From Proteobacteria bacterium UBA2136 (GTDB lineage: Bacteria; Pseudomonadota; Alphaproteobacteria; UBA2136): a stretch of 64,000 bases of DNA. The stretch lies in assembly GCA_002328405.1 (NCBI GenBank), contig DCXM01000006.1, positions 711,837 through 775,836 of the forward strand. Reading direction: 5' to 3'. Shown piece by piece: positions 4,455 to 59,508 of the stretch. The notes beneath the pieces were generated by a model. It did no database searches. It saw only the letters and a list, made by a program, of their open reading frames with translations, and was not told the DNA's origin. Both the position numbers and the translations under genes were made by a program. The stretch's first letter is position 1. Every line of letters begins with the position of its first letter.

Positions 4455-4474
4455 AAGGTTGTAAAATAAAGCTT

Positions 4475-5891: not shown

Positions 5892-6006
5892 CTTGGTTTA
5901 AGGGCTTTTTTTTTGTGGGTGGTTGTGGTAAGGTTTGGTTAAATTGTTTCATCTTTTAACGTTCGTTAAAAACTCTTTTTTATATTTTCTCAATGGAGGT
6001 GGTGTT

Positions 6007-6927: not shown

Positions 6928-6944
6928 AAATAGGAGAAATTCTC

Positions 6945-7556: not shown

Positions 7557-7587
7557 AAAAAAAGCCCCAACATTGGGGCTTTTTTTT
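7557..7587. terminator. Bidirectional rho-independent terminator between convergent genes
   Basis: A-run, then GCCCC-AACATT-GGGGC, then T-run. Confidence 0.75.
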
Positions 7588-8797
7588 ATTGTTCAAAGCA
7601 CATAATAACAAGGTTGTTGGTGTTACAGCTACTGGAGGCATTGGTTCCCCACCATGTGCCATAGCGGTGACCTGAATGTGAAGAGGAACTTGAAGTCCAT
7701 CCGTTACAATTGTCCACCAAGGGGTCGCCCGTATCAACAGCTGTGCCGTCACCGTTCACACCCGTCCATTCATTGACGGAAGTTCCAAACTTATTGCCGC
7801 TTGCGTAAACATCCACCATGTTAACGTCACCATCGGTTAAGTCAATCCAGTTGTGAGCCATGCGTGAGCCGTTGGTGTAGTAGTATGGTGTATCGCTATA
7901 TTTTGTAAAACGCGATTCGGGGTCATTTGTGGCGTCGGTGGCGACCCATGCCATAAATGTGCCAGTTAAGCCTGCTGCACTTGCTGCATTGTTACATGTG
8001 GTATCTGCGCCTGCAACACCGCCTAAATTACCATTATTGGTGCTTACCTTAAAAACTTTTTTATGTGCGGGTGGGCCTGCTTTTGTGGTTGTTGTAAAGC
8101 TGGTTGAATAGCTACCAACCGTAACTGTCATGCTGGTGTCTGTGCTATACTGGTCAGAGCTGTCATTGCGTAACTGTAAAAATTGTCCGTCATCAATTGT
8201 TTGGGTGCCTGTTCGCCAGGTGTGGATTGTGCTGCTACAATTTGAGTCACTGCATATACGATACTCTGGGTCAGGGGCGCCACTGACGGTGACATCTACT
8301 GCGCATGAAATGCCAGTGACTTCCACAATGCGACTGTATGATGTGGATTCTCTGTTGCGATTGACTTCGTCACCAAAGGTGAAACCGTCGGGTCTATCAT
8401 CACAGCTGTTTTCAATGACCGACCAAGCTGTGCCGTTACAAATGTCCAATTTTTTGGTTGTGTCGTTGTAGCGAATGGTTCCTTCGGTGTTGGTGTTGCA
8501 AGCCAAACCAGTTGATGTGCCCACCTTAATTTCGCCCGCAATGTCCATTAAAGGTTTTTGTCCGTCTGTTCGGCCACCCATTTTACCAGATGAGTCATGA
8601 CGGCTAAGGGAAACCCATGTTCCGCCATCGCAAATCAGGCGGTGAAAACGGTTGTTGTAACTGCTGACTTTAATGGCGCCATTGGTGGCACATGCACTAC
8701 CAGGTGCTTTGTCAATACTATGAGCAGGCAATGCTAGGGCCATGTTGAATGCAATGCAAACAACAAGTTTTATAATCTTAAATGAACTGTATTGCAT
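7586..8797 (-). CDS. Secreted modular protein with C-terminal endostatin-like / DUF1554-like domain
   Basis: Signal peptide MQYSSFKIIKLVVCIAFNMALALPAHS. Two Cys-bracketed ~30-aa modules (for example CNTNTEGTIRYNDTTKKLDICNGTAW). C-terminal KKVFKVSTNNGNLGGVAGADTTCNNAASAAGLTGTFMAWVATDATNDPESRF ... WTGVNGDGTA ... DNCNGWT ... LVIMCFEQ. Confidence 0.7.
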   Translation of the reverse strand: MQYSSFKIIKLVVCIAFNMALALPAHSIDKAPGSACATNGAIKVSSYNNRFHRLICDGGTWVSLSRHDSSGKMGGRTDGQKPLMDIAGEIKVGTSTGLACNTNTEGTIRYNDTTKKLDICNGTAWSVIENSCDDRPDGFTFGDEVNRNRESTSYSRIVEVTGISCAVDVTVSGAPDPEYRICSDSNCSSTIHTWRTGTQTIDDGQFLQLRNDSSDQYSTDTSMTVTVGSYSTSFTTTTKAGPPAHKKVFKVSTNNGNLGGVAGADTTCNNAASAAGLTGTFMAWVATDATNDPESRFTKYSDTPYYYTNGSRMAHNWIDLTDGDVNMVDVYASGNKFGTSVNEWTGVNGDGTAVDTGDPLVDNCNGWTSSSSSHSGHRYGTWWGTNASSSCNTNNLVIMCFEQ

Positions 8798-8808: not shown

Positions 8809-10044
8809 CTATTGTTCAAAGCAATAAAGCCAATTTTGTTGGTCACATTGTTCGTCGTTAGCGCTTGACCATGTACCTGTGGTGTTGTTGGCGCCATCAC
8901 GCCCTGTGTAGGCGCTACCATTTGTGGTCCATTTGTTACAGTTATCGTAAAGTGGGTCACCATTAGTAAGGTAGGCAGTACCATCTTGATTAACGCCTGT
9001 CCAAGGGCTGGAAGAAAAGCCTGTTACATTTCCATCAGCATGCATACGTTTGTTGGCTACACTAATAGCCCCGTCAACAAGGTCTGTCCAGTCATTGGCC
9101 ATTTTTGTACCATCAACAAAGCGGTATGGTACAGTGGCGCGGGTGAAGCGTGATTCGGGGTCGTTTGTGGCGTCTGTTGCAACCCAAGCATAGTAAGTAC
9201 CAGAAAGGCCTGCAGCACTGGCTTCGGACATACAAATGTTATCCGCAGCTGTTACCCCTCCAAAGTTACCACGGTAACGATTGCTGGTGATAAAAACCCG
9301 TTTGTATGTGGCGTTGTCAGTTGTTGAAATATTATAATTATCCACGGCTGAGCCAACGTTTAAAGTGGCGGTTGTTACCTTACCGTCCGCACTGTCAGAG
9401 GTGTTGCGTACTTGAATGTATTGACCATTGGTGATGTTTTGAGAGGTTGAACCATAAGCCACTGCCACGTTGGAGCATGTGGCGTCGTTGCAAATGCGAA
9501 ATTCCGGCGCTGGTGACCCTGAAATGCTGACTAAGGTCGGGCATGAGATATCCGTAATTTGCACAATGGATGAAGGGTAGCTGGTGCTTGTACTGGCTCC
9601 GGTCGTGTTGGGGATATCAAAGCCGCTTGGACTATTGTCACAACTTAAGTTTAAACTGTCCCAAGTGGCGCCTGTGCAAATTTCTAAAACTTTGGTCGTG
9701 CTGTCAAATCGCAGTGTACCTTCATTGCTACTATTACATAAAATGCCTGTGGATGCGCCGACTTTAATTTCACCGGCTACGTCTAACGGTGCTTCAGGCG
9801 ATGATTTGTTGATCCCTAAATATCCACTGGTCGTCCCTTGGGTTAAAATAACCCAATTGGCACCATCACAAATAAAAGTACTAAAGGTGTTGCCGTTATT
9901 GTCCATTGAAGTTTGGCCCGTAACCGAGCAGGCTTCTCCTTCGGTTACCGCCAAAGTTGTCTGTGAAAGTAGGGTGACAGTAAAAAATAAAAATAAAAAT
10001 GCGGCCACAGGGCGGCAAAAAAATTGGAGTGGATTAAACGCCAT
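8809..10044 (-). CDS. Secreted modular protein with C-terminal endostatin-like / DUF1554-like domain (tandem paralog)
   Basis: Same architecture as 7586..8797. KRVFITSNRYRGNFGGVTAADNICMSEASAAGLSGTYYAWVATDATNDPESRF ... NWLYCFEQ. The start is placed at ATG 10044 (MAFNPLQ), preceded by AGGTGA; the listed ORF extends to GTG 10053. Confidence 0.7.
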   Translation of the reverse strand: MAFNPLQFFCRPVAAFLFLFFTVTLLSQTTLAVTEGEACSVTGQTSMDNNGNTFSTFICDGANWVILTQGTTSGYLGINKSSPEAPLDVAGEIKVGASTGILCNSSNEGTLRFDSTTKVLEICTGATWDSLNLSCDNSPSGFDIPNTTGASTSTSYPSSIVQITDISCPTLVSISGSPAPEFRICNDATCSNVAVAYGSTSQNITNGQYIQVRNTSDSADGKVTTATLNVGSAVDNYNISTTDNATYKRVFITSNRYRGNFGGVTAADNICMSEASAAGLSGTYYAWVATDATNDPESRFTRATVPYRFVDGTKMANDWTDLVDGAISVANKRMHADGNVTGFSSSPWTGVNQDGTAYLTNGDPLYDNCNKWTTNGSAYTGRDGANNTTGTWSSANDEQCDQQNWLYCFEQ

Positions 10045-10075
10045 ACACATCACCTAATATTTTGATTTTGTATAA

Positions 10076-16348: not shown

Positions 16349-17410
16349 CTAGTGATTTTTAATATCTTCCGAAAAATCTTGGACATTGGCGGAAATGTTG
16401 TTGATGTTGATGTTAATGTCCTGAAATGCGTCTTGTTGTTGGGAGAGCGCCATGCTAATTTGCTCGAAACTGTCGGCTAAATTAGATGTGTTTTCATTGC
16501 TGGAAAGCACTTTGCTGACCGCACTGGCGGTGGACTCTAAAATTTCGTTGATTTTTTGGCTGATGCTGCTGGCCGCATTTTCCGTGTTGTGGGACAATTT
16601 TTTAACTTCGTCGGCCACTACGGCAAAGCCTCTACCCGCTTCGCCAGCGCGCGCCGCCTCAATCGAAGCGTTTAAGGCCAGCAAGTTTGTTTGTTTGGCC
16701 AAGCCGCCAATAATGTTAATAAATTCGTGAATTTGCTCCACATGGCTGTTTAAATTTTCAATGGTTTCTGCAGCTTCTTGTGTTTTGCTGCTGGTTTGGT
16801 TAATCAGCGTGTTGTTGTTTTGGGTGAGGTTGCTGATGGCATGCAAGGAGCTGTTAAACTGTTCGGCTGCGCTGGCCACACTGTCAATGGACATGGCAAT
16901 TTTGTTGGAAAAGCTTTCAATCACGTTGTGTTTAAATTCTTCTTCTAAGTGTTTAAGGTGTTGTTCATAACAGCTGATGGACTGTGCCATGTCCACAGTG
17001 ATGACGGTGTCCAACGTTTGAATGTGCTGAATAATTTTTTGACTGTCCGTGTTAAAGCGCTTTGTGCATTTTTCCACAATAACTTGGGTCAGTTCGTTTT
17101 TAATCAGGTTGTAACTTTCAATATAAGGCTCTGGCGGTAGGCCAATTTTAACATGGGCCATGCCAATGCGCTTGGTGCGGGCAAAAAAGTCTTCGGTAAA
17201 GCCTTCTTTAAAAGTTTGTGCCCAGTGGTTCTTTTGGGCTTTTTTTAAACGGTCCTCTTGCCCTTTTACCAAGTGGCCGTATGTTTTGCTCCTGTTTAAA
17301 ACAACATAAAATTTATCCAACGTTTGTTGAATGTCACTTTCTATCAGTTGCCAAAGTTCCTGACGTTTTTGGTTGAAGGTTTGGTCCAGTTGAATAAAGT
17401 TTAATTGCAT
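16349..17410 (-). CDS. Soluble globin-coupled methyl-accepting chemotaxis protein (HemAT-like)
   Basis: N-terminal globin-sensor-like region ([20 protein letters not shown]). C-terminal MCP signalling domain [30 protein letters not shown]. No TM segment. Confidence 0.8.
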
Positions 17411-17474
17411 CACACACCATTTTTAAAGTTTTTGTATTTTTTACATTGTATGAAGATGATAAAAAACTTCAAAC

Positions 17475-28733: not shown

Positions 28734-29285
28734 TTACTTTAAGTTTTTGATGTAATCTTGAATAATTTGGAAGGCTACGTTAATTTTTTTAACGTGGTCT
28801 TCTTCTTTTTTAGAGCCCTTGTTAAGGTCTGGGTGGTGCTTTTTCATCAACGCAAGGTATGTCTTTTTTAAGGTGGCAAAGTCAATGGGCAGTTTAATGC
28901 TTAAAATATCGCAAGCCTCTTGCACATCTGGGGTGACTTCTTCGGCTTCTTCTTCTGTGTAAAATCCATATGATTTACGGATGTTTTCTTCCCGCTGGCG
29001 CTGTTTGAAAAAGGTGAACAAGTCTTCGGCATTGGCAAAGGTGAACTGTGCTGTTTTGGCGCTGACACCGTGGATGCCAAAGCGTCTTGTAGGTCGGTTC
29101 CATGTGGACTTTGTTTGCATGGCGAAGATATCGTCATCGCTCATGCCATCCAAGCCGTTCCATCGTTTGTTGAATTCTTTAATATGCTCTTGGCAAAAGT
29201 ATTGACGGTCGTAAATGTCCTTCGTGCTCTTGGGAGCAGCAAAAGTTCCTTCTTCCTTACAGTTTGGCCATGCACATTTTTTCAT
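28734..29285 (-). CDS. J-domain protein with N-terminal Cys-rich region
   Basis: C-terminal J domain (LKKTYLALMKKHHPDLNKG, HPD present). N-terminal CAWPNC ... FCQEH. Lies 47 nt downstream of the prepilin peptidase gene on the same strand, with no obvious terminator between them. Confidence 0.75.
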   Translation of the reverse strand: MKKCAWPNCKEEGTFAAPKSTKDIYDRQYFCQEHIKEFNKRWNGLDGMSDDDIFAMQTKSTWNRPTRRFGIHGVSAKTAQFTFANAEDLFTFFKQRQREENIRKSYGFYTEEEAEEVTPDVQEACDILSIKLPIDFATLKKTYLALMKKHHPDLNKGSKKEEDHVKKINVAFQIIQDYIKNLK

Positions 29286-29332: not shown

Positions 29333-29926
29333 TTATAGAAGGTGCTTAAAAAGCATAAAGCTCCACAAGGCCAAAATCAGGGCAGGTCCAAAGGAAATAT
29401 GTTTGTTATATGCCCTTAAAACTGGCCAAAGTAAAAGCGCAAAAAAGAATGCCAACCAAAAAAAGTAATGTAGATTTAAAACCCCGACAAAAGCCCCTGC
29501 GGCAAGGCAAAACTTAATGTCGCCACCGCCGATGCCGCTGTGTTTGTCCATTTTTTCTGAAATGAAGTTAAGTATCAGCAAGCTAAAGCCAGCAACCACA
29601 ACCCCAAAAAAGGATTCTACGGGTGTAACATGGCTTGACCAAAAGCTGTAAATCAGACCAATTAAAGCCAGTGGAAGGGTGTAAATATCCAATAAAATAA
29701 GGTGCTTAAGGTCAAGGGCGGTCAGCCGTGCCAGTAAGGGGGAAATGGCGCAGAGAACCATGGCCTCTAAGCTTAAAATTGCACCGTTGAAAGCGCATGT
29801 TAAACTGGTTATGAACAGCAACCATAAGCCCAGCCAAAGCTTGTTGAGGGGCAGTTGATGAAAAGGCCCTTTATCAATTTCAGCTTGGGGGATAAACCGC
29901 TTTTCAATTGGCCACATATCACTCAT
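29333..29926 (-). CDS. Prepilin peptidase (A24 family), peptidase-only form without N-methyltransferase domain
   Basis: ARLTALDLKHLILLDIYTLPLALIGLIY and GIGGGDIKFCLAAGAFVG, the two catalytic Asp motifs. About 197 aa. ATG 29926 overlaps the upstream stop (ATGAGTGA); the listed ORF extends to 29992. Confidence 0.75.
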   Translation of the reverse strand: MSDMWPIEKRFIPQAEIDKGPFHQLPLNKLWLGLWLLFITSLTCAFNGAILSLEAMVLCAISPLLARLTALDLKHLILLDIYTLPLALIGLIYSFWSSHVTPVESFFGVVVAGFSLLILNFISEKMDKHSGIGGGDIKFCLAAGAFVGVLNLHYFFWLAFFFALLLWPVLRAYNKHISFGPALILALWSFMLFKHLL

Positions 29927-30824
29927 AAATAATGGACGCAGAAAACGGTGGTTTGTTTGGGTTTGGTCGGTCTTGGATAAAGTTGGAGTCATATTTTAAA
30001 ACCCGTTTCCAAGGGTCAAAGGCAAACTCTTCAGGCAAGCCAATTTTTTTCATCAATTCGGCCATGCTTAAGCTGTCGCCGGAAACGTAAATGGTGTTGC
30101 TGCCACCGGTTTTGACGTCGTCATAGTAAGTGGCGCCGGAAATATCGGTGTTGGATTGTGGGTAAAAGTTAAATTCGGTGTATTTGTCACCATCGAGTGG
30201 GAAGTTGTAGCACCAAGCGGCTTCTGGGCATTCGGCCTGCGCTTCAATAAAGTTGGCTGAGCTGTAATCTTCTAGCTTGCTGATAATCAATTGGGCACGA
30301 CCTTGATATTCGTTCACACGGGCTTTTTCCACTTCAAAGGTAGTGTATTTAATGCCAATGTCATCGTTTAAAGGTTGCCATGTGTTCCACTCGGCTTCAA
30401 AAGTTGGTGCAGGGGTGTCGTCGACACCGTCTTTACCGGAAGAGTGGATGGTGGCAAGGTTTTCGGTCACCTCAAAGTCATTGATGCGGGTTGTGCGGGT
30501 TAAGGTGTTGTAACGCCACTCATTGTCCCACGGGTCTTTTAAAAGGGTGGTTTCTTCAATGTAGCCTGTTTCAAAAAGGGTGCGCACGTCAGGTGCAAGG
30601 GCTGTAAAGCCTTTGCCTTTGTAATGGTTTTCTAACGCGTCTTTAATAATTTGTAGGCCAATTTCAGCGCCTTCAACGCGGCTTCGCTCAAGTTTTGACA
30701 TCATGGTTACGCCACCTGTGGCCGCCAGCACACTGGCGATAATCAGCGCAATACGCGCATCCATACCAAACATGGCACCTTTTTGGTTGGCTAAAAAGTG
30801 ATTCAATTTGAGCAATGGTTTCAT
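29919..30824 (-). CDS. GspG-like pseudopilin with non-canonical leader junction
   Basis: MKPLLKLNHFLANQKG|AMFGMDARIALIIASVLAA, then a GspG-type motif LLKDPWDNEWRYN ... IHSSGKDGVDD. Confidence 0.6.
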   Translation of the reverse strand: MKPLLKLNHFLANQKGAMFGMDARIALIIASVLAATGGVTMMSKLERSRVEGAEIGLQIIKDALENHYKGKGFTALAPDVRTLFETGYIEETTLLKDPWDNEWRYNTLTRTTRINDFEVTENLATIHSSGKDGVDDTPAPTFEAEWNTWQPLNDDIGIKYTTFEVEKARVNEYQGRAQLIISKLEDYSSANFIEAQAECPEAAWCYNFPLDGDKYTEFNFYPQSNTDISGATYYDDVKTGGSNTIYVSGDSLSMAELMKKIGLPEEFAFDPWKRVLKYDSNFIQDRPNPNKPPFSASIIYE

Positions 30825-30834
30825 GCGTTGATTT

Positions 30835-31560
30835 TTACCTCATATCTAAACGTTTTTTATAAGTATAACCCCAAGGCGCCGTAAATGAAAGCACAACAAC
30901 CTTGTCTGACTTTCGGTCATATTTAAAAGGTTGGCCCCACACGTCTTTAAGGCCTGTGGCGGCATTGACTTGTGTTTTATATTCTTCATTAGATGGGAAC
31001 TTGTAACCGTAAGTCATGTAAGAGCGGTAAATGACCGAGGTTTCACGCTCTAGCAGTTTTTTGCTTTCAGCAATTTGTTTTTTGCGTACATCTTCGCTGT
31101 CAAACATCACCACACTGTCTTTTGCGGTGTTATAATCGGCCATAGCGTCACTGCCCAGTGTGCCAATTTCTTTTTGAATGCTTTCATCGTCGGATGTGGT
31201 GATCAACACCCGTTTGTTGGTGGTGTTAAAAGCACCACTTTTGACGGCACTGCTTAAAAAGGCTTGTTCGCCAGACTTTGTTTTACCTGTACTACCACTT
31301 AAAAATTGTTGCGCACGCTCAAGGTTGATGTCATTGCTAAAGCCTGTGGTTGCAACGTTTTCTGTCAGCATCGCGTTTTCAAGGGCTTGTTTGATTTGCT
31401 CGGCCTTTTGGCGTTCTTGCTGGATGTTTTGCTCTTCAATGTTGACAATTTCACGCTTGGCCCAGTGGTTCATGGCGGCGCTAAAGACAGCCACCCCCAT
31501 CAACATACCATACATAAAAGGGGAAAAAGCACCGCGCTGGTTTTGAAGACCTTTAAGCAT
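30835..31560 (-). CDS. Pilin-like protein (short basic leader ending in G-A, hydrophobic helix)
   Basis: MLKGLQNQRG|AFSPFMYGMLMGVAVFSAAM. C-terminal DVWGQPFKYDRKSDKVVVLSFTAPWG resembles the GspG DPWG..Y motif. Confidence 0.5.
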   Translation of the reverse strand: MLKGLQNQRGAFSPFMYGMLMGVAVFSAAMNHWAKREIVNIEEQNIQQERQKAEQIKQALENAMLTENVATTGFSNDINLERAQQFLSGSTGKTKSGEQAFLSSAVKSGAFNTTNKRVLITTSDDESIQKEIGTLGSDAMADYNTAKDSVVMFDSEDVRKKQIAESKKLLERETSVIYRSYMTYGYKFPSNEEYKTQVNAATGLKDVWGQPFKYDRKSDKVVVLSFTAPWGYTYKKRLDMR

Positions 31561-31574
31561 GCAAACCTCCTTGT

Positions 31575-32720
31575 TTATAAGGCAATTTTAATTTCTAGGA
31601 CGTATTGGTTGTCCAACATATCAAGCACAACTTTGCGTGATAAGATTTCTTTAATCGTTGCATTAATCTTATGGGAGTTACCTTGAGTTTTTTGCCCTAA
31701 AATACCGGCACGTTCAGCAAATTGATCCAACGCTTCTTGCTTTAAAAGCAGGTACTGGTTGTAGGATTCTTCTGAAATAGCTTCCTTGTTCGGCATGTAA
31801 GACTCGATCAATGCTTCAATTTCTGATGTGTCCTGCTCGGCATAGGTGACACGAATGGGGATGCGGTCCCCTTCGGTGTAGCGTTTGTTGTTGATAATGG
31901 CATAAGGGTACGGCGAGGTAACAATGCTTTGAATGCTTAGCTTTGCAAGTTCGCTTTCAAAGTCAATTTCCTTGATGTTTGCATCCCGTGTTTTGGTGGC
32001 TTGGGTGATGATGTTTTCCAAAAAGGATGCAAATGCGTCCAACCCTTGCCTTTGTTCGGTGGTGATTTTATCAAGGTTTGGCAAGTCGTTGATAGAAATA
32101 TGGTACTCAGGCAATCCGGTAATGTCGGGTGTTTGCTCTTCTTCCTCTGCAAGGTCGCTGGACTTAAGATATTGATTGCTTTCCCCTAGCATGGAGTCGA
32201 ATGATTCGGCAATGCTTTTTTCGCGGTGAGCTTCCACCACGTAGCCTTCATCATCGACTTCAATTTTAACTTTGCGATTGTCGGCCAAAATTCTGGCTTG
32301 ATTGCTGGATACCAGTTCGGCTTGTGCCACAGCACCGGTGGACAAGCGCACTTCTAAACCGCTGCCAATTTCAACATCGGGGTACACTTCTTTAAACTTA
32401 CGGTTTTGTTTTTTAAGGCCGAACCTTTGTTCGAAAACGTCACGGCTGTATTTACTGCGCCCAATGTCGGATGTCAGGGGTTTGGGGGTGTAAGGGTCAA
32501 TGTTTTTGGTGGTCAACAGGTCCTTTAAAGTTGCAATGTACTTTTCGGACTCGTCGCCTTTTTTGCGTTCATATTCGCTGATGACATCTTGCCTTAAAAA
32601 CTCAAAGTCTGGCTGGCCAACAAAGGTTTTTGGCCATGGTAAACCTTCTTGGGCCACTGCGGTGGAAATAAATATAGATGACGCCAGTAAAATGTTAAAT
32701 GATGTTCGGATCATACGCAT
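31575..32720 (-). CDS. Secreted/periplasmic component of the filament operon, function unknown
   Basis: Signal peptide MRMIRTSFNILLASSIFISTAVAQ. Acidic 381-aa protein. No secretin-type motifs recognised. Confidence 0.5.
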   Translation of the reverse strand: MRMIRTSFNILLASSIFISTAVAQEGLPWPKTFVGQPDFEFLRQDVISEYERKKGDESEKYIATLKDLLTTKNIDPYTPKPLTSDIGRSKYSRDVFEQRFGLKKQNRKFKEVYPDVEIGSGLEVRLSTGAVAQAELVSSNQARILADNRKVKIEVDDEGYVVEAHREKSIAESFDSMLGESNQYLKSSDLAEEEEQTPDITGLPEYHISINDLPNLDKITTEQRQGLDAFASFLENIITQATKTRDANIKEIDFESELAKLSIQSIVTSPYPYAIINNKRYTEGDRIPIRVTYAEQDTSEIEALIESYMPNKEAISEESYNQYLLLKQEALDQFAERAGILGQKTQGNSHKINATIKEILSRKVVLDMLDNQYVLEIKIAL

Positions 32721-33201
32721 AGAGGTACCCTTCTATATTGATCATGTGTTGGTCTTCGGCCAGTTGTTCGTTGGTAGCGCCGCAGCCAAAGCACAGGTTG
32801 TAAATGACAAAGCCTGGCAATGACGGCAAGGTTTGCATTTTTTTAAGCAGTTCTTGCGTTTCGTTAAATGTGGCTGGGCCGGTAATTTTAAAGGTGTGGC
32901 GAATGATGCCAAGGTGGGCATCTTGCCTTCTGGCTTGGCCAATGAAGTTAAATTTCAGGCCAGGTTCACCAATTTCAAGTAAACGCTCGATGATGTTTTT
33001 CTTGTCGTCACCACGGACCACGGCAAATTTTGGAATTTGCTTGCTGCGCTGTTCAATGCGTTGGTAGCGGTCAAGTTTGTCCTTTGCTTCAATGAGGCCA
33101 CGTTTTTTGGCAACAATCAGGTCTTCATTTTCCATGTATTTATAACTGCCGACAATGGCTGTAAAAACAAGGATAGCAATACCGAGTGTGAATTTCATCA
33201 T
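32695..33201 (-). CDS. GspM / PilO-like bitopic assembly protein (topology-based call)
   Basis: N-terminal TM (FTLGIAILVFTAIVGSY), a coiled-coil stretch, then a ~100-aa globular domain. Position is between the GspL-like and periplasmic genes. Confidence 0.4.
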   Translation of the reverse strand: MMKFTLGIAILVFTAIVGSYKYMENEDLIVAKKRGLIEAKDKLDRYQRIEQRSKQIPKFAVVRGDDKKNIIERLLEIGEPGLKFNFIGQARRQDAHLGIIRHTFKITGPATFNETQELLKKMQTLPSLPGFVIYNLCFGCGATNEQLAEDQHMINIEGYLYAYDPNII

Positions 33202-33206
33202 GGGGT

Positions 33207-34337
33207 TTATTCTCCTTCGCTGGTGGCCGTGCTGATGGTTTGCTGTTGCGCACGCTTCACATCTTCTTGGTATTCGGCCAGCATTTCCGAAATAGGTTCT
33301 AGTTCTACCAAGCCTTCAATGGTAAATTGGTTGCCACCTGGTGGACGGCGAATACCGGACATGGTCACGCTTTGACCCAACAACGCCTTGCTAATCGGCT
33401 CTTCTTCCAGCCAGCCTTTGTAAGCATCTTTTTGGGCTTTGATGGTCACCAGTAAGATGTCCGAAGGTTCTTGCGCGTCCGGTGTTTTAATTTCAAAGTT
33501 AGCAATTTTCATGCCCGAGCGTTGAATGGCGTTGGCCACGTCGGTCGCCACGAATGACATAAGATTGCGGTAACGCATAAATTGCTGTTGCTCGGTGATG
33601 GCACGGTTAAGCTCTAGGTAGCTTTTACCCGATGGTGTTTCAAGGTCCACCGTACGAATTTTTTGTGAAAGGTCGTCAATTTCACTGCCTTGAATGAAGA
33701 TAACGATATACGCCATGATCGCCACAAGAATGGAAACAAACATCAAGGCAAAGCCATACTTTTCTTGGAAGCTTGGCATGTTAACCCAAGCATCTTCTGT
33801 GATCTCTAGATCGTTCACAGAGCGCAGTTTAACGCCCAGTTCGCTAATGCGGTTGTTTTCCCATGAGGTGTATAAAAATCGTTCCGTTGTCCGTGGGTAT
33901 GACTTTAAAATGTTTTGAATGTCCCGCACCCATGAAACAGGGGAGGTGGGCTGAACATAACTGTCATTGCTGTCCCAGTGGAAGATGATGTCTGCGGTGA
34001 CGAGAATATGCACTTCGTTGGCGTTGTTACTGCGCATCCGGCACATGTCAATCAATGGAATGTCCCCAAAGGCTTGTTGTGCAATTAAAATGCTTTGTTC
34101 GTCGGCTTCCTCTTCAGAATCTGTAAGGTAGATGTACGGGTCAATCGGCTCGCCGTCAAGGTCACGTGGTGCAAAGAAAAGTAGCGCTAAGTTTCGGCGT
34201 GACTGTTCATCGGTCACGTCCTGCCACGTGTCCGCAAAGATGGACTCGCTTGAACTTTCGGGGAAGTATTCAACACGGTTTAAGCCAAGAAAGCAGATGT
34301 TCTTGAACTTTTGACCAATTTCAAAACTTTTTGACAT
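33207..34337 (-). CDS. GspL / PilM-PilN-like bitopic assembly protein (topology-based call)
   Basis: About 195-aa cytoplasmic part, a single TM (FALMFVSILVAIMAYIVIFIQ), and about 160-aa periplasmic part. Immediately downstream of the platform gene. Confidence 0.4.
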   Translation of the reverse strand: MSKSFEIGQKFKNICFLGLNRVEYFPESSSESIFADTWQDVTDEQSRRNLALLFFAPRDLDGEPIDPYIYLTDSEEEADEQSILIAQQAFGDIPLIDMCRMRSNNANEVHILVTADIIFHWDSNDSYVQPTSPVSWVRDIQNILKSYPRTTERFLYTSWENNRISELGVKLRSVNDLEITEDAWVNMPSFQEKYGFALMFVSILVAIMAYIVIFIQGSEIDDLSQKIRTVDLETPSGKSYLELNRAITEQQQFMRYRNLMSFVATDVANAIQRSGMKIANFEIKTPDAQEPSDILLVTIKAQKDAYKGWLEEEPISKALLGQSVTMSGIRRPPGGNQFTIEGLVELEPISEMLAEYQEDVKRAQQQTISTATSEGE

Positions 34338-34353
34338 GTTTTATTTTCCCTTT

Positions 34354-35448
34354 TTAGTTTTGTGACATCACAATAGCCAACATTTCCAACAGCAACACAG
34401 CGCCACCTAACAACCACATAATGGTTGAAAATACACTGATAAACTTGGTGTAAGCGTCGTTCAGCTCACGCTCAAGAATAGAATAGGCGTGGTTCATCCC
34501 CTCAATCATCACATCGTTGATGCCACGTTCGTTACCAGCGTAAGTTTCTGAAACTTTAACCGGTGTCACAGAAATCATTGGGAAGCCAGCTTTTTCCATA
34601 GCGTCGGACATTTGCCCACCTGTGGTAATAACCTGATTAAACAGGTCAATCCGTCTTTTTAAAATGGCGTTGGTGGCCAAGGCTTCCATAATGGGGATCA
34701 TTTGCTTTGGTTTCACGCCACTGGCAATTAAATGTGGGAAGTAAAGCAACATGCTGGCATATGTTTTGTATGTGATGTACTTACCAAAACCAGGGATACG
34801 TAAAACATAACTGTCAATCCAAAAGCGGCCTTGGGCGGACTTGGCCACACTGTAAGCTGTGACACAAAAAATAATAAATCCACTTAATAAAAAGTACCAG
34901 TAGTTTGCCATGCTTGCGGTAAAGTCCATAATCATTTGTGGAATGGCAGCCATTTGCTTGCCTTGCGCTTGGCGCATTTGTGCCATGGTTGGCATGGTGT
35001 TTAAACCGGTGTTAAAAAGGGAAATGCAACTCATAAAGAAGAGAATGGAAGGCGTGATAATTTCCGCCATACCACTGCGCTGGTTTTTAATCTTCTTGTC
35101 TTCAAGTTGTTGTAATAACTGGAACGCTTGGGTCATGTTGTTAGAAGCTTCACCTGCCAAAATGGCAGCGCGGTGAATATCCGTAAACAGGACATATTCA
35201 TGTTCAGATGCGCGGCTAAGCGGCTTACCCTGTGCCACTTTTTGGGCAATACCGTGGAGGGCGGCGCTCAGCTCTTCTTTTTTCTCAGATCGGAAGGCAC
35301 GGGCAACAGCGCGGACACAAGCCTCGGTAGGCTGTCCACTTTTGAGCATTTGGTGCATCAAGAAAAACAAGCGCTCGCGGTCACGCGCGCTGATTTCTCG
35401 ACATCTAGGGCCAATGCCGTCGTTACTGAATTGTTTCCATATCTGCAC
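34354..35448 (-). CDS. GspF / PilC-family inner-membrane platform protein
   Basis: Two-repeat layout with ILAGEASNNMTQAFQLLQ-type motifs and three TM segments. Overlaps the ATPase gene end by 26 nt. Confidence 0.75.
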   Translation of the reverse strand: MQIWKQFSNDGIGPRCREISARDRERLFFLMHQMLKSGQPTEACVRAVARAFRSEKKEELSAALHGIAQKVAQGKPLSRASEHEYVLFTDIHRAAILAGEASNNMTQAFQLLQQLEDKKIKNQRSGMAEIITPSILFFMSCISLFNTGLNTMPTMAQMRQAQGKQMAAIPQMIMDFTASMANYWYFLLSGFIIFCVTAYSVAKSAQGRFWIDSYVLRIPGFGKYITYKTYASMLLYFPHLIASGVKPKQMIPIMEALATNAILKRRIDLFNQVITTGGQMSDAMEKAGFPMISVTPVKVSETYAGNERGINDVMIEGMNHAYSILERELNDAYTKFISVFSTIMWLLGGAVLLLEMLAIVMSQN

Positions 35449-37120
35449 TAAAGAATTTCTCCAGTTCTTCTAAACTTGTAATACCATTTTTAACATGCAA
35501 CAAACCGCCTGAAAGCATGTCAATCATATGACCGCTTGAGCGTGCTTGTTCTCGAATAATGTCCAGCCAGTCTGGGCGCAAACGGGTGTTTGTCCAAATG
35601 TTACGGCTGATGTCCTTGCGCCAAAGTTCTAAAACCTCTTCAATGGCAATACGGCCAAGGTAGCCGCGGTAACGGCAATGTTCACAGCCGTTGCGGTTGG
35701 GTCTGTAAATAATGTCGCCAGCTCTAAAGCCTACTTTGCGCAAGTTGTTTAATTTGTCGGCGTATTCCAAATCAATCTCTGTGGGGATTTTGCATTTAGA
35801 ACAAAGTCTACGCACCAATCTTTGCGAAATAATCCCACGGACGTTGGTGAAAATCTGCTCTGGCGGCACTTTACGTTGAATCAATCGATCCAGCGTCATA
35901 AAGGTATCGTTGGCGTGCATGGTGGTGATAACAAGGTGACCAAGGTTACCAGCGTCAATCGCCTTTTGGGTGTCCTCAGGACTTCGCACCTCACCAATAA
36001 ACAGCACGTCAGGGTCCAAGCCAAGGGCTGCATACATAAATGTTTCAAGGTTTAAACCGGCGGATGTGTCTTCCTCTGTTTGGATGACGTTGTCCATCCG
36101 TTCCTCAATTTGTTTTTCATACGAAATAACGTTTTGACCTGGGCGTTGACCACGGCGAATCATCAAACGTGCGGCGGTGGATTTACCTGAACCTGTTGGA
36201 CCAGAGAAGATGATACAGCCTTCTTCAAAGCGCATGAGGTTGTCAATTTTTTCAATGGTGGTGTTGGAGTAACCAAAGCTGTCCAAGTTCCCTTCAAAGG
36301 ACCTTAAGAAACGCATAGCAATTTTGGCTGTACCTTCTAAGGTGATGGGCTGGGTTGTGTAACGAATATCCACCTGTTGCCTTGATGAAAGGTCAAAGGT
36401 CATACGGCCGTAAAGTGGCTTTTTGTAGTTTTCCGCACGGACACCGGCAATGTGGCGCAAGCGTCCCAAAACGCGCTCATACACTTCCACAGGCAGGGGC
36501 ACAAGCTCTTCAAGTTCGCCATCAATACGGGCAAGAACCGTTGGCTTACGGTTTAAAATTTCAATGTGTAAATCGGTGGCGCCGTTTTTAAAAGCGGTGC
36601 GGATGATTTCGTCTGTTAGTGAAACGATAGCGTCATCATTCCCTTGGTTGATTTGCGCATAAGCATTCTCAACCAAGAATTTTAGGGAGTGACCTTCACG
36701 CTTGGACATGCGCTCAATCGCCCCTTCAATGGCTTTAGGCGTTGCCCAAACAAACTCGTGGCGGGACTTGCGGTGACGCAACACAATTTCACTGACCAAG
36801 CGCTTGTTCGGCAGATCGGCAGCGGCCCAAATAATGGTTCCACGTGCCAACTCAATCGGGCAGGCGGTGTAAAACATCATAAACTCACGGTCAATGCCGT
36901 CAATCTGGTGTGGGGTGGTGGCCATCATTTCTTCATCGCTTTTGATAGTGTAGTCATAAGCAATGGCACGGTAGCGCATTTGCTGCACTTCTGACAATTT
37001 ACCCGCACGACCAAGGGCTTCAATCAAGGCGTCAGGATCTTTTTGTACCGTAACAGGGAAACCTTGTAGGTCCCCAATTGTTACAATATGATCACTGATC
37101 ATCAAATCGACAATGTCCAA
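35423..37120 (-). CDS. Type II secretion / type IV pilus assembly ATPase (GspE/PilB family)
   Basis: Walker A FSGPTGSGKST, Walker B DPDVLFIGEVR, His box GHLVITTMHAN, tetracysteine CSKC...CEHC. TTG start preceded by AGGGGG. Confidence 0.9.
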   Translation of the reverse strand: MDIVDLMISDHIVTIGDLQGFPVTVQKDPDALIEALGRAGKLSEVQQMRYRAIAYDYTIKSDEEMMATTPHQIDGIDREFMMFYTACPIELARGTIIWAAADLPNKRLVSEIVLRHRKSRHEFVWATPKAIEGAIERMSKREGHSLKFLVENAYAQINQGNDDAIVSLTDEIIRTAFKNGATDLHIEILNRKPTVLARIDGELEELVPLPVEVYERVLGRLRHIAGVRAENYKKPLYGRMTFDLSSRQQVDIRYTTQPITLEGTAKIAMRFLRSFEGNLDSFGYSNTTIEKIDNLMRFEEGCIIFSGPTGSGKSTAARLMIRRGQRPGQNVISYEKQIEERMDNVIQTEEDTSAGLNLETFMYAALGLDPDVLFIGEVRSPEDTQKAIDAGNLGHLVITTMHANDTFMTLDRLIQRKVPPEQIFTNVRGIISQRLVRRLCSKCKIPTEIDLEYADKLNNLRKVGFRAGDIIYRPNRNGCEHCRYRGYLGRIAIEEVLELWRKDISRNIWTNTRLRPDWLDIIREQARSSGHMIDMLSGGLLHVKNGITSLEELEKFFSADMETIQ

Positions 37121-37164
37121 AATTAAACCCCCTGTTTAAATAGATTTATCCTTGGGTAGTCTAC

Positions 37165-37200
37165 ACTAAAAAACGCCAAACATAAAAGACTTGGCGTTTA
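37165..37200 (-). terminator. Rho-independent terminator after the major pilin-like gene
   Basis: Minus strand: AAACGCCAA-(11 nt)-TTGGCGTTT followed by a T-run. Lies between the pilin gene and the ATPase gene, the arrangement typical for major pilins. Confidence 0.65.
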
Positions 37201-37274
37201 AATGGGCTTAAATTAACCAAAGAGCGTGCAGAGCGATGCGTTGTTTTTCACACACTCTAAAAAGTTATAGCTCT

Positions 37275-37838
37275 TTATTTTCTGGTCAGGCGGTAATAAA
37301 GGGTAGCTTTGTCGGTTGCTTGGTCAATGTCCACCAGCAAGCGGCCACTGTCTGGCGAGCCTTTTTCGTCCAAGGCGCCGTCAATGTGTTCATCAACCGA
37401 TGCGGCAAGGTTGGCGGGCACTTCTGTAAGTTTGGCCCAAACAAAGCAAATGTCACGGCGGTTCACACATGGGCGCGGGCTGCGACCTTTAATTTTACGC
37501 ATTTCAATGCCATATTCTAAGCTGTAACGACCAAAGGATACATGGTTCTCTGAGGACATGATCATGTAAGGGCCGCTCCACCCAAGCTGACCACCGTCGT
37601 TGTTCAATAGATCCGAAAAGGTGTTGGTGTTGACAGATGTATCAAGCTGGAAGTTTGTATAAGCTTTAGAGATGTTGTCAAGCTCGGTGGCAAGGGCGGT
37701 TACTTGGGTTTGTTGAATGTAGCCGTAACCAGCGGTACCTGCAATAACACTTAAACCACTGAAGATGGCCAAGGTGATCCGTGCATCCATACCAAACAAT
37801 GCACCTGTTTGAGATTTTAATTTTTTAAATAACAACAT
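37275..37838 (-). CDS. Major pilin/pseudopilin-like protein with non-canonical leader junction
   Basis: The start is set at ATG 37838: MLLFKKLKSQTG|ALFGMDARITLAIFSGLSVIAG. Contains GWSGPY, as in GspG-type pseudopilins. First gene of the cluster, with its own terminator. Confidence 0.6.
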   Translation of the reverse strand: MLLFKKLKSQTGALFGMDARITLAIFSGLSVIAGTAGYGYIQQTQVTALATELDNISKAYTNFQLDTSVNTNTFSDLLNNDGGQLGWSGPYMIMSSENHVSFGRYSLEYGIEMRKIKGRSPRPCVNRRDICFVWAKLTEVPANLAASVDEHIDGALDEKGSPDSGRLLVDIDQATDKATLYYRLTRK

Positions 37839-38014
37839 CTTAAAGCCCTTAAATTTTAATTTGTCTTTTAATGTATGTTTATTTGCGCCTTGTTTGCAAG
37901 TTTTTTGCAAGAACTTAAGCGGTAGGGTGTGAAATCGCACTTTGTTGTTGTGTGGATTTCGTCACGCATTAAGCGCGCATTAAAAAAGAGGCCGAAGCCC
38001 CTTTTTTTTAATCA

Positions 38015-38649: not shown

Positions 38650-39465
38650 GTGCATTTGCTTGGTAAATTTTTAGGCTTATTTATTGGTTTTGGCGCAACG
38701 CAAGATAGTATTGGCGCTGTGGCTGGGCTTTTGATTGGGGCGCTTTTTGATGCCCACTTTGCCCGTGTGGAAAAACCGTATCGGAAGCGTGGCGCTTGGC
38801 AAACTGAATTTTCATACTTGGTGACGGTTTTGCACGCAAAGTTTGCCAAAATGGACGGTCAAGTGACTGCTGATGAGGTGCGGTTGTTTCAAAATGTGGT
38901 TGCTGTTTCAAAGGAAGATTTACCTGCCGTGCGTGCGGTTTATAACCAATTCCGCCGCAGTTCGGACGGTTTTGAGCATGTGGCTGTGAGATTGTCCGAA
39001 ATGTTGGCGTTTGATCCATCTTCTAAAAATCATGTGGTGGAGACTTTGTGTTATGTCATGTATGGCACAGGTCAAGGTGCAGACCTTTACCAAAAGGCGT
39101 TTATTCAAGCGGTGGCGCGGATATTTTCCATTGCGGATGCGGATTTGCAAAAATTGATGGACGGTGTGCGGTTGCAGTTTGAGGTGGGTGGCGCATCCAC
39201 AGCTGGGGCGTCATCCGGTCAGAGTGAAGGGGCTTATAACGACGCACCGTGGTTGGACCACAGCAAGGCTTTCAAGGTTTTAGGGTTGAAGGGCACGGCC
39301 ACTTATGAGGAAATGCGCAAGGCTTACAAAAAGCTGATTCGGGAACATCACCCTGACAAGGTGCGCGGTGCGGGTGGGACGGATCAAGATGTGGAGCAGG
39401 CGGAGGATCGTTTGTCCGACATCAATGAGGCTTATGCGGTGTTGTGCCAATATTATGATCGCTAA
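38650..39465 (+). CDS. djlA: Co-chaperone DjlA (TM + TerB-like domain + C-terminal J domain)
   Basis: 271 aa, colinear with E. coli DjlA as recalled. C-terminal YKKLIREHHPDKV. Confidence 0.75.
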   Translation: MHLLGKFLGLFIGFGATQDSIGAVAGLLIGALFDAHFARVEKPYRKRGAWQTEFSYLVTVLHAKFAKMDGQVTADEVRLFQNVVAVSKEDLPAVRAVYNQFRRSSDGFEHVAVRLSEMLAFDPSSKNHVVETLCYVMYGTGQGADLYQKAFIQAVARIFSIADADLQKLMDGVRLQFEVGGASTAGASSGQSEGAYNDAPWLDHSKAFKVLGLKGTATYEEMRKAYKKLIREHHPDKVRGAGGTDQDVEQAEDRLSDINEAYAVLCQYYDR

Positions 39466-57529: not shown

Positions 57530-57566
57530 AAAAAAGGCTGTCACGCTTTGGACAGCCTTATTTTTT
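57530..57566. terminator. Bidirectional terminator between pirin and the 647-aa gene
   Basis: A-run, then GGCTGTC-(8 nt)-GACAGCC, then TTATTTTTT. Confidence 0.7.
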
Positions 57567-59508
57567 ATGGGTTTTCAGACCTTTTGATTTCCAATTTAAA
57601 GGGGTAAGTGCGGGACTGTTCTTGGGTGGAATAGACCACTTTTACAAATTGAGGTGTGCCTGAAGCGTATTGCGTGATGCTGTCGCCCGATTTAGTTTTC
57701 ATGTTGGCTTTCAGCACTTGCTTTTTGCCGCTAAGCGGTAACACATTGAGAATTTGCCCCTCAGGGTCTTCTAACTTGTAAGTGAGGTTGTTGTATTCTG
57801 CCTTTTCAATATGCACCAAGGCTTTGCCCACTTTATGCGGTTTGTCGGTCGTTGCGGGTATCACATCCTCTTGAATGACATTGGCAATGCGCAGTTCTAA
57901 AATGCCGTGGACGGTTGTGGCGTCATCCGTGGTATAGCCGTCGGCCAGTCTTAGGGCTTTTTCACCTTTTACGGTGTGTTGGTATAGGGCGCTGTCCCCT
58001 TGGTAGGTCATATGGGAAGAGGCTGATAAAGCTTGGGGTTTATTGTTGCGGTCCTTCCCGCAGGTTTCTAGTTTTAAAATGTTGTTGCCTTGGCTATTTT
58101 CCACCCTTTGGATGGTAACTTTGGCGCGGGCGTTTTCGTCATTGCTGTGCATGCTGGCGGGTATGTTGGGGATGATGCCACTTTTAACATGGACAAATAA
58201 TGTGCTGTCATTTTGTTTTCTGCGATTGGAGAAGGACTGGGCTTCGGCGCCAACCAGCACTCTAAATGGGCCAAACTTTTCGCCAAGGTCTTGGCTGAAT
58301 TGGTCAATGTTGCTGGTGTCAATGTTGTCAATGTCTGCATTGTTTTGATAGTAAGGAATTTGCCTTGGGTCCGCCAATACATCTTCTTTTGGCTCGGTGG
58401 ATTCGGACTCTGATTCGGTTGTGGATTGAAACTTGAATTGGGACTGAATCAAGGTGGCAATTTGATTTTGAATGTCACTCATCTGGCTGATTTGGTCGCC
58501 AGATATTGCCATGTTGAAGGTGAGTTTGTTGCCGCTGGCGTCAAATTCCATGCTTTCAAGGATGTCCTTGTAAAACTGGATGCTTGCCGGCTCTTTGGGG
58601 AACAGTTTCACAAAGCCGTCCCTTTTTTCCTGTGCGTTGGTGGCCAGTTCTTTGGCTTGTTCGGCCGTGGTCCATGACTGAAGGTTTAACGCCACGCCAC
58701 GATCCATCAGGCTCACCTCGGCGCCAAAGTAGGTTTTGGTAAAGTCTTCGGTGGGGGCTTGCGCCAGCATCATCCGTGTCATCGGTTCTTTAATTTGTTT
58801 TTTGGCTAATTCTGGGTTGAAAATGGCGGCGGCAAACAGTTTGTTTTGGCGGTAAGTTTTCCACGGTGCGGCATGGTCACTGTTTTTTGGATTGGTCAGT
58901 TTTTTAAGCGCTTGTTTGATTTTACCTTCGGCGGTGATGATGATGTTGTCCTGTTGGATTGAAATATCCAAGTTAGGGACTTTGCCACAGGTTTCCACAT
59001 CCTCTGGTGGGGTGACACGGTAAATATGGGCATTTTTGGCAATGGCGGTGGTGAGGGCGTTTTGTTTGATGGCGCTGGCCAGTTTTTCGGGGTTAAATTG
59101 CCCAGTCAACACCAAGGTGACGTCTAAGGTGGTTCTACTTGCTTCGGTGCTGGCTGCTTCCGCCACCAACAGCAATTTTTCAGCTTGTTTGTGGATGGGT
59201 GCGCCAGCGCTGTTGAGTTTTTGTAAAAAGCCAAGGGGGTTGCCAACGGACATTTTAGGCGCTTGGCTTAAAAGGTCCCCCTCTGTTTCGGCAAGGCTTA
59301 AACTGCGTTCAATATCGGCATAAAAAACCGCCACGGTTTGTGGGGTTAGCAGTTTTTGCTCGGCAATGTCAATGGTTTCGGATGGTTTAGATGTGGTGAG
59401 GGACTGGATGTATTGATAAACAATTAGCATAGCCAACAGAGCTACCACCAGGCCTGCGGCCATTAAAAGGTGTTTTTTTGGTAATTGTTGCAAGGGTTTG
59501 ATTTGCAT
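57565..59508 (-). CDS. Large membrane-anchored protein (647 aa), unknown function
   Basis: N-terminal TM (LLMAAGLVVALLAMLIVY). The long extracytoplasmic region has an acidic Ser/Glu linker (TTESESESTEPKED). No recognisable domain. Confidence 0.6.
   Translation of the reverse strand: MQIKPLQQLPKKHLLMAAGLVVALLAMLIVYQYIQSLTTSKPSETIDIAEQKLLTPQTVAVFYADIERSLSLAETEGDLLSQAPKMSVGNPLGFLQKLNSAGAPIHKQAEKLLLVAEAASTEASRTTLDVTLVLTGQFNPEKLASAIKQNALTTAIAKNAHIYRVTPPEDVETCGKVPNLDISIQQDNIIITAEGKIKQALKKLTNPKNSDHAAPWKTYRQNKLFAAAIFNPELAKKQIKEPMTRMMLAQAPTEDFTKTYFGAEVSLMDRGVALNLQSWTTAEQAKELATNAQEKRDGFVKLFPKEPASIQFYKDILESMEFDASGNKLTFNMAISGDQISQMSDIQNQIATLIQSQFKFQSTTESESESTEPKEDVLADPRQIPYYQNNADIDNIDTSNIDQFSQDLGEKFGPFRVLVGAEAQSFSNRRKQNDSTLFVHVKSGIIPNIPASMHSNDENARAKVTIQRVENSQGNNILKLETCGKDRNNKPQALSASSHMTYQGDSALYQHTVKGEKALRLADGYTTDDATTVHGILELRIANVIQEDVIPATTDKPHKVGKALVHIEKAEYNNLTYKLEDPEGQILNVLPLSGKKQVLKANMKTKSGDSITQYASGTPQFVKVVYSTQEQSRTYPFKLEIKRSENP

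Follow-up and report, generated by a model that had tools for sequence, protein, structure and literature searches.

Type IV filaments (TFF) are among the most widespread of prokaryotic machines, and their classification has been drawn mostly from cultured bacteria. Systems that fail the specific models of the named subtypes have been set apart as "generic" TFF systems, with an ATPase, an inner-membrane platform, a pilin-like subunit and, optionally, an A24 peptidase, and type IVa pili (T4aP) have been described in the same study as multi-locus systems (Denise et al. 2019, PMC6668835). Here, we describe an operon of nine genes on the minus strand (positions 29333-37940) of a 64,000-nucleotide stretch, hereafter the window, from Proteobacteria bacterium UBA2136 (GenBank assembly GCA_002328405.1, contig DCXM01000006.1). 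Matches to T2SSE, T2SSF, T2SSG (in the pilin-like gene pil3) and Peptidase_A24 are co-located in this operon, that is, the parts by which a generic system is defined, and under the scheme of Denise et al. the operon would be a generic TFF system. We consider it very likely that the operon encodes a working type IV filament machine that belongs to none of the named subtypes.

The more specific explanation that we favor, and that we regard as reasonably probable when taken as a whole, is a functional, lineage-specific pilus assembly machine. All inner-membrane parts needed for assembly would then be encoded in the operon, as a machine of the PilB/GspE branch (i.e., T4aP, type II secretion system [T2SS], mannose-sensitive hemagglutinin [MSH] and competence [Com] systems), which forms a deep clade of its own in uncultured aquatic alphaproteobacteria (MarineProteo1/GTDB UBA1280 and relatives) and would make a surface pilus, for adhesion or uptake, with its secretin encoded elsewhere. 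The system appears to be a compact variant in which T2SS-type parts (a fused GspL-like protein, a connector of the homology region [HR] type, and PulG-fold subunits) are mixed with type IV pilus (T4P)-type parts (an ATPase of PilB length, a lone pilin gene, and arrays of pilin genes), plus a putatively non-methylating peptidase. In the literature, we found neither an account of such a system nor a report of pili from the lineage.

Gene content, conservation and phylogeny of the operon

All nine reading frames are intact and run in one direction, and independent gene callers, applied to identical Tara Oceans/Logan contigs, delineated the same nine genes, with products of 187, 565, 364, 376, 168, 381, 241, 301 and 197 aa. 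An earlier, sequence-only reading of the window had listed nine co-directional minus-strand genes of this order and these sizes, and both the open reading frames (ORFs) and the Tara gene calls agree with it. The pilA-type pilin gene comes first and is followed by the genes for the ATPase (E), the platform (F), a GspL-like protein (L), a small protein in the GspM/PilO position (M), a 381-aa protein, two more pilin-like proteins and the peptidase, that is, by the order E-F-L-M-381-pil2-pil3-peptidase. At the last of these junctions, ATGAGTGA (29926-29919), the peptidase ATG overlaps the pil3 TGA, as had been read previously; at the remaining junctions, the genes are 5-16 nt apart or overlap by 26 nt. 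The ATPase gene starts at a TTG (37120), preceded by an AGGGGG Shine-Dalgarno sequence. Between it and the pilin gene (37275..37838, minus strand) lies an intrinsic-terminator-like hairpin (37171..37199, minus strand) with an 11-bp stem and a T-run, and the terminator of its own that had been ascribed to the pilin gene is thus indeed present. A further, GC-rich hairpin, AGGGGCTTCGGCCTCT, with a T-run is found at 37982-38002, immediately behind the cytochrome c gene, and shields the pilin gene from upstream transcription; it was not listed in the terminator scan because its stem has a mismatch.

The ATPase (35423..37120, minus strand; 565 aa) is of the PilB/GspE type, with a T2SSE match at 3.9e-66 and an N-terminal MshEN-type domain at 1.1e-5. 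It has Walker A and B motifs, Asp and His boxes and the GspE-type tetracysteine motif noted previously, and its catalytic residues and the four cysteines (C440, C443, C479 and C482) are invariant columns in 27 relatives. The protein aligns over its full length to the PilB model, yet scores 244 bits against a cut-off of 676; solved PilB, PilF and GspE structures match it about equally well (203-211 bits in the PDB search). On one Tara contig (L032, positions 5724-7298), the called ATPase has only 453 aa, and its N-terminal part is matched by a separate fragment upstream, possibly reflecting a frameshift or an assembly error in that population variant. The inner-membrane platform (34354..35448, minus strand; 364 aa) is of the GspF/PilC type (T2SSF, 8e-16), and the GspF model covers its residues 30-361 with 99 bits against a cut-off of 424. 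Its start is uncertain: a GTG gives 364 aa, and 334 aa are called on some contigs. The peptidase (29333..29926, minus strand; 197 aa) is a short A24 prepilin peptidase whose sole match is Peptidase_A24 (1.6e-12, residues 83-188), with catalytic Asp residues in A-L-D-L and G-G-G-D-I-K. Neither the Pfam scan nor the orthologue alignment showed a DiS_P_DiS/methyltransferase domain in it, and its orthologues are 194-205 aa long, in agreement with the earlier claim that the enzyme has no N-methyltransferase domain.

Four of the nine products, namely the ATPase, the platform, pil3 and the peptidase, match curated families, and all fall far below the equivalog cut-offs. Specifically, the scores against NCBI equivalog models (bits, with the cut-off after the slash) were 244/675.65 for PilB (TIGR02538), 222.7/630 for GspE (TIGR02533), 99/424 for GspF (TIGR02120), 83 and 66 for the PilC models (vs. 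700), 20.7/88.85 for GspG (TIGR01710), 156.9/300 for ComGA, 49.5/240 for ComGB and 29.7/373 for the ATPase of the TadA type (TIGR03819).

At the cluster level, 81 relatives of the ATPase were found with 63-95% identity, beyond which identity drops sharply to 34% at most, and all 81 come from uncultured metagenome-assembled genomes (MAGs) labelled "Alphaproteobacteria", "Proteobacteria" or "Magnetococcales" bacterium. Among one-genome-per-species GTDB genomes, we recovered 31 loci with the ATPase. The carriers include MED694 (96% identity), MarineProteo1_Bin2, UBA6156, UBA6503 and UBA12223, and the carrier habitats are marine, freshwater, groundwater and sludge. UBA12223 has been placed in the Alphaproteobacteria, order UBA1280 (PMC11142082), and MarineProteo1 is an early-branching group used in mitochondrial-origin studies (PMC10411912, PMC8879329); with a host lineage that lies near the alphaproteobacterial base and serves as an outgroup in such work, its envelope machinery is of some evolutionary value. 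The order E-F-L-M-381-pil2-pil3-peptidase-J, the last being a J-domain gene described below, is kept in nearly all sufficiently long loci, and the subgroup that includes the window also keeps the cytochrome c and pilA genes upstream. The gene order is conserved in 31 species-level genomes and is, therefore, not a chance arrangement.

The operon is also under purifying selection. For all of its genes the nonsynonymous rate (dN) is far below the synonymous rate (dS), with dN/dS values of about 0.17 or lower that are rough because dS is saturated. The peptidase is the fastest-evolving gene (dN of 0.50 vs. 0.03-0.16 in the other genes); it is 49% identical to its counterpart in one related locus (L001), the other products being 80-96% identical. 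The very low scores to all curated models, together with the fast-evolving peptidase, might suggest a decaying, non-functional remnant of a standard T2SS or T4P. However, nine intact reading frames with invariant catalytic motifs, an order kept across 31 species down to 63% ATPase identity, and dN/dS ratios of about 0.17 or lower everywhere already contradict decay, and we give this explanation next to no credence.

To place the ATPase, we built a neighbour-joining tree of 27 clade members, their 39 nearest non-clade hits and eight annotated references, including A. baumannii PilB, E. coli HofB, pO157 EtpE, P. aeruginosa XcpR and IncI PilQ. The clade is monophyletic in 100 of 100 bootstraps and sits on a long branch, with distances of at most 0.49 within the clade and at least 1.53 to everything else. 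It falls outside both the T2SS pair (XcpR, EtpE) and the T4aP pair (PilB, HofB), and its sister group is unstable. The method is crude, yet its outcome is in line with the HMM scores. Hence, the phylogeny now run agrees with the proposed separation of the ATPase from the reference T2SS and T4aP clades, and this isolation, together with the equivalog scores, upholds the view that the operon fits no standard T2SS, T4aP, Com or tight adherence (Tad) system.

Pilin-like subunits and their prepilin motif

Only three genes in the window carry a prepilin motif. The pilA-type pilin (37275..37838, minus strand; 187 aa) is the candidate major subunit, with a W-x-G-P-Y globular part. Pil2 (30835..31560, minus strand; 241 aa), a candidate minor or tip subunit, is a pilin-like protein with a variant of the motif and no family match, and it has D-x-W-G-x-x-F-x-Y near its C-terminus. 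Pil3 (29919..30824, minus strand; 301 aa) is a pilin-like protein with a PulG fold that scores 21.4 against T2SSG (gathering threshold, 21.0); 15 of its 23 orthologues match the same family, with a best E-value of 1.9e-7. It holds two D-P-W-G...Y modules and is found in every complete locus, and its search against PDB profiles gave chance hits only. The GspG-type motifs GWSGPY and KDPWDNEWRY...SSGKDG, which had been reported for the pilin-like globular parts, are there in the ORF translations. Likewise, the absence of a GspH-K minor pseudopilin set from the operon and the window stands: no GspH-K family match was obtained among the operon products, which include only two further pilin-like proteins.

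The most distinctive and original feature of the operon, overlooked by the sequence-only reading, is its non-canonical prepilin motif. The N-terminus of the pilA-type protein reads ...SQTGALFG|MDARITLAIFSGLSVIAG, the bar marking the probable cleavage site, and common to it and pil3 is the strictly conserved stretch ...Q-x-G-A-[M/L]-F-G-[M/L]-D-A-R-[I/V]-[A/T]-L, followed by a hydrophobic helix. Throughout the lineage, the motif A-M-F-G-[L/M]-D-A-R is invariant in these pilins, and the 94 metagenomic paralogues described below share it. In pil2, the N-terminus is Q-x-G-A-F-S-P-F-M-[FY]-G and the helix follows at once, with no charged residue past the Gly. No Pfam N_methyl match was found in the three pilin-like proteins or in 34 of their orthologues, nor is there a Glu5. 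The conserved Glu5 of type IV pilins is thought to be central to subunit registration.

A scan of metagenomes with the back-translated pilA-type motif returned at least 120 stretches. Among the matches listed, 94 pilA-type paralogues have the Gly of A-M-F-G without exception (94/94), and the earlier Gly is replaced by Ala in 30% of them. Because the second Gly is invariant and the first is not, cleavage after Q-x-G was dropped as a candidate, and the likely site is after A-M-F-G, with a mature N-terminus of [L/M]-D-A-R-I-A-L. Such an N-terminus would put Asp2 and Arg4 in the place of the canonical Glu5. That is, an invariant Asp/Arg pair would replace Glu5, and if cleavage and packing are as proposed, this system would put the generality of the Glu5/N-terminal-amine rule to the test.

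Many of the metagenome contigs among the matches listed carry between 2 and 7 pilA-type genes in tandem, at intervals of about 600 nt and mostly away from ATPase genes, which suggests diversifying surface subunits. In eight loci, arrays of three to seven copies (of the "DAR" type) have unrelated neighbours and lie mostly off the ATPase operon. The reverse arrangement was seen as well: 17 loci have the operon with no pilA-type gene upstream of the ATPase, and in this subgroup, pil3 may be the sole DAR-type pilin linked to the operon, or else the gene for the major pilin lies at another place in the genome.

Alignment-complex proteins and the outer-membrane conduit

The 376-aa bitopic protein (33207..34337, minus strand) has no Pfam or NCBIfam match, T2SSL and GspL_C included, and resembles GspL in its fold. 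Its cytoplasmic domain (residues ~1-185) is followed by a transmembrane (TM) and coiled-coil helix (190-233) and a periplasmic ferredoxin-like domain (~278-345), and in the AlphaFold2 (AF2) model (pLDDT 88.5), a long helix joins an alpha/beta domain at the N-terminus to a ferredoxin-like domain at the C-terminus. The seven matches to the PDB ranked highest by Foldseek are PilO and the cytoplasmic parts of GspL/EpsL/PulL (prob 0.69-0.99); those of prob 0.84-0.99 to PilO and cytoplasmic GspL have E-values of 1.6e-3 to 2e-2, with TM-scores that are low owing to domain orientation. A profile of the family searched exhaustively against 1.84 billion proteins gave 27 hits, almost all of which were complete or fragmentary sequences of the family itself, and no sequence-level bridge to GspL, PilM or PilN. 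The GspL-like label given previously to this bitopic protein is, therefore, supported at the fold level by the predicted structure. Both this protein and the 381-aa protein belong to orphan families limited to the host lineage.

The small bitopic protein encoded next (32695..33201, minus strand; 168 aa) has an N-terminal TM segment followed by a periplasmic domain. Orthologues are conserved in 22 relatives, and all 22 share a periplasmic C-x-x-C (C137, C140) that could be a disulfide or a metal site. Of the GspM/PilO-like character assigned to it by the sequence-only reading, the size, topology and position fit, and a sequence or profile match did not emerge; its role in the GspM/PilO position is suggested by its place in the operon.

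The 381-aa protein (31575..32720, minus strand) is periplasmic, with a Sec signal peptide (AVA|QE), no TM anchor and no PDZ domain. In the orthologue alignment, the motif W-P-x-T-F-x-G-Q-P-D-F-E-F is conserved, as is a beta domain with a helical insert at the C-terminus, and the linker between them is variable; residues 274-289 give a sub-threshold Pfam T2SSB match. Its AF2 model has a pLDDT of 67.6 overall and ~80-88 in the C-terminal strands. With Foldseek, the C-terminal domain weakly matches the GspD-bound HR domain of GspC (3oss_C; prob 0.99, TMt 0.74, E-value 0.39) and, again weakly, GspB (4wfw; prob 0.89). HR-type domains are of the kind that binds the N0 domain of secretins. We regard the protein, with moderate confidence, as a candidate connector of the PilP/GspC type, and the earlier statement that the operon has no GspC is doubtful because of this weak HR/GspB-like domain.

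These assignments bear directly on the main rival explanation, a streamlined T2SS in which a short periplasmic pseudopilus would push folded proteins through a secretin encoded elsewhere. Such a system would account for the fused GspL-like protein in place of separate PilM and PilN, for the GspC-HR/GspB-like domain of the 381-aa protein, for the T2SSG fold of pil3 and the GspG-type W-x-G-P-Y and D-P-W-G-x-x-Y motifs, for the lack of a retraction ATPase nearby, and for the gathering of everything in one operon, as is usual for T2SS. It is harder to reconcile with the wide margins by which the GspE, GspF and GspG equivalog models are missed, with an ATPase that is apart from XcpR/EtpE and has a PilB-like full-length architecture, with the absence of a GspH-K set and of an adjacent secretin, and with a peptidase that has no GspO methyltransferase domain. 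Further, the major subunit gene is monocistronic and, in relatives, tandemly amplified, which is unusual for GspG. We thus view a streamlined T2SS as unlikely, albeit worth serious consideration, and pick a pilus over a T2SS piston based on the lone pilin gene with its terminator, the pilA-type arrays of two to seven copies, and the full-length alignment to PilB.

How a pilus would cross the outer membrane depends on the secretin. No secretin domain was detected with Pfam in the scanned window ORFs of more than 300 aa. A secretin signature regular expression, validated on the real secretin EtpD, and tblastn with the EtpD C-terminus found none in the window plus 35 loci (31 genomes and four Tara/Logan contigs; 656 kb in total), which covers about 20 kb per relative genome; the same probes returned nothing in 80 pilin loci (355 kb). 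Accordingly, the earlier observation that the 64-kb window has no secretin stands by all three approaches, and by the regular expression and tblastn it extends to the 10 kb on either side of the operon in relatives. These results could be taken to mean a secretin-independent filament machine in a diderm, with a filament that either remains in the periplasm or passes through the outer membrane by some route other than a secretin: the large window ORFs gave no Pfam match to a secretin, and there was no regular-expression or tblastn match in the 656 kb of operon loci or the 355 kb of pilin loci with a validated probe. However, the 381-aa protein has an HR-like domain of the kind that binds secretin N0, only ~20 kb per genome were covered, and T4aP secretins commonly have their genes apart from pilB/pilC, T4aP being described as multi-locus (PMC6668835), so that we hold secretin independence to be improbable. 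In other words, we consider a secretin elsewhere in the genome more likely than none, because T4aP secretins are usually unlinked to pilB/pilC and because the HR-like domain is of a secretin-binding type. A still bolder interpretation would see here an undescribed, family-level TFF branch of a deep alphaproteobacterial lineage, with a class III signal peculiar to it (cleavage after A-M-F-G, leaving [L/M]-D-A-R unmethylated at the N-terminus where N-methyl-Phe...Glu5 would otherwise stand), orphan alignment proteins and, in its strongest version, no secretin at all; we would put only a small stake on it. If it is true that whole genomes of this lineage lack a secretin, the system would be considerably more interesting.

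Returning to the pilus machine that we favor, assembly might proceed as follows. Prepilins with (K/R/Q)-x-(G/A)-A-M-F-G|[L/M]-D-A-R-I-A-L would enter the inner membrane, and their leader would be cut by the short A24 peptidase, most likely after the invariant Gly of A-M-F-G; the peptidase would leave the new N-terminus un-N-methylated because it has no methyltransferase domain. A hexameric ATPase would dock on the cytoplasmic domain of the GspL-like protein and drive the GspF/PilC-type platform, which would lift subunits from the membrane into a helical filament. The pilA-type protein would be the bulk subunit, in view of the terminator behind its gene and of the tandem copies in relatives, and pil2 and pil3 would be minor, priming subunits. 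In the periplasm, the GspL-like and the 168-aa proteins may together form the alignment complex, to which the N-terminal motif of the 381-aa protein would bind, while its GspC-HR/PilP-like C-terminal domain would reach the outer-membrane conduit, most likely a secretin encoded elsewhere in the genome.

Several observations weigh against this explanation. At the subunit level, the pilA-type protein matches no pilin family in Pfam (one of 11 orthologues weakly matches T2SSG), and the proposed cleavage site derives from conservation only. A GspL-like protein of fused architecture, a connector of the HR type and pilins with a PulG fold are hallmarks of T2SS and leave some probability for a role in secretion. 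No relation of the 168-aa protein to GspM/PilO was detectable with Pfam, NCBIfam, PDB profiles or a profile-profile comparison with the L-like family; the PDB profile search with the 381-aa protein gave no sequence match, only chance hits, and its HR-like assignment comes with poor E-values (0.39 and 1.0) and a model of medium confidence. Neither a secretin within ±10 kb of the operon in any of the 31 genomes or in the window, nor a second T2SSE-family (PilT-like retraction) gene in the window or any locus, was found. Finally, the ATPase tree is a neighbour-joining tree on saturated distances of about two substitutions per site, with few labelled references.

Chromosomal surroundings and comparison with named systems

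The operon region is core chromosome. The flanking genes are housekeeping genes (RecJ, UvrB, UvrC, NhaA, YidC, rnpA, rpmH, Lgt, TyrRS and pyruvate kinase), the window is uniform in GC content, and the flanks are syntenic in relatives; an origin as a mobile element was rejected on these grounds. The J-domain gene (28734..29285, minus strand; 183 aa; DnaJ domain at 3e-9) begins 47 nt past the peptidase stop, at the distance reported before, and is next after the peptidase in most loci, an unusually stable adjacency. This adjacency persists even at 26% peptidase identity, as the gene order of a divergent metagenomic variant (L110, positions 897-5300) indicates, which comprises three pil3-like genes, a peptidase, a J-domain gene and a pilA-type gene. 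The J-domain protein is a full-length homologue (25-30% identity, 95% coverage) of an alphaproteobacteria-wide J protein that sits between bolA and cobS-cobT in Sinorhizobium and Sphingomonas. Given this bolA-adjacent, alphaproteobacteria-wide relative, a role as a component of the machine was rejected as the default; the gene is probably a neighbour, not a component, that may be co-transcribed with the operon.

In fact, the operon has a J-domain protein of a different kind on either side: downstream lies that of the bolA type (28734-29285), and upstream a DjlA-like membrane protein with TerB and DnaJ domains (divergent; 38650-39465). Elsewhere in the window, a globin-coupled chemoreceptor of the HemAT type (16349-17413), with a Protoglobin and a methyl-accepting chemotaxis protein (MCP) signalling domain, implies aerotaxis and motility in the host. 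There are also tandem paralogues of ~400 aa (7586-8797 and 8809-10053), both of which have a DUF1554 domain at the C-terminus that scores slightly over the Pfam threshold, and a 647-aa ORF with no Pfam match (57565-59508).

When set against the named systems, the operon resembles T2SS (Gsp/Xcp/Etp) in its tetracysteine ATPase, two-repeat platform, fused GspL-like protein with a small bitopic partner in the GspM position, candidate HR-domain connector, and PulG-fold subunits with W-x-G-P-Y and D-P-W-G-x-x-Y, as well as in being a single operon with no retraction ATPase nearby. It departs from T2SS in having no adjacent secretin and no GspH-K, a connector with neither PDZ nor TM segment, an operon peptidase without a methyltransferase domain, a prepilin motif without G|F-T-L-x-E, and a monocistronic major subunit gene; further, all equivalog models are missed and the ATPase lies outside XcpR/EtpE.

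With T4aP (PilA, PilBCD, PilMNOPQ), the operon shares the end-to-end alignment of the ATPase to PilB and the MshEN-type N-terminal domain, a stand-alone pilin gene that adjoins the ATPase and platform genes, the pilin paralogue arrays of relatives, and a connector with a PilP-like logic, i.e., an N-terminal linear motif and a C-terminal beta domain. Unlike T4aP, its L protein is fused rather than split into PilM and PilN, its connector has no lipobox, PilT and PilQ are not found nearby, there is neither a bifunctional PilD nor an N_methyl motif, and the scores remain low (PilB, 244 vs. 676; PilC, 83 vs. 700).

The likeness to Tad/Flp systems concerns the short A24 peptidase without a methyltransferase domain, which has a TadV/CpaA-like architecture, and the expectation that the subunit is not methylated and that its +1 residue is small or hydrophobic. 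In contrast, the ATPase is not of the TadA/CpaF type (30 vs. 373 bits), there is one two-repeat platform instead of TadB plus TadC, the subunits are 187-301 aa long with globular domains as opposed to ~50-60 aa for Flp, and RcpA, TadZ and TadD are absent. The Tad-like traits ascribed to the operon by the sequence-only reading are, consequently, confined to the peptidase architecture, and do not extend to the ATPase, platform or pilins.

Finally, in comparison with the generic TFF systems of Denise, Abby and Rocha (2019), that study was based on complete genomes of cultured organisms, whereas the clade described here consists of MAGs only, and in contrast to the T2SS-like system of chlamydiae, an example of the generic class, the present operon retains a GspL-like protein.

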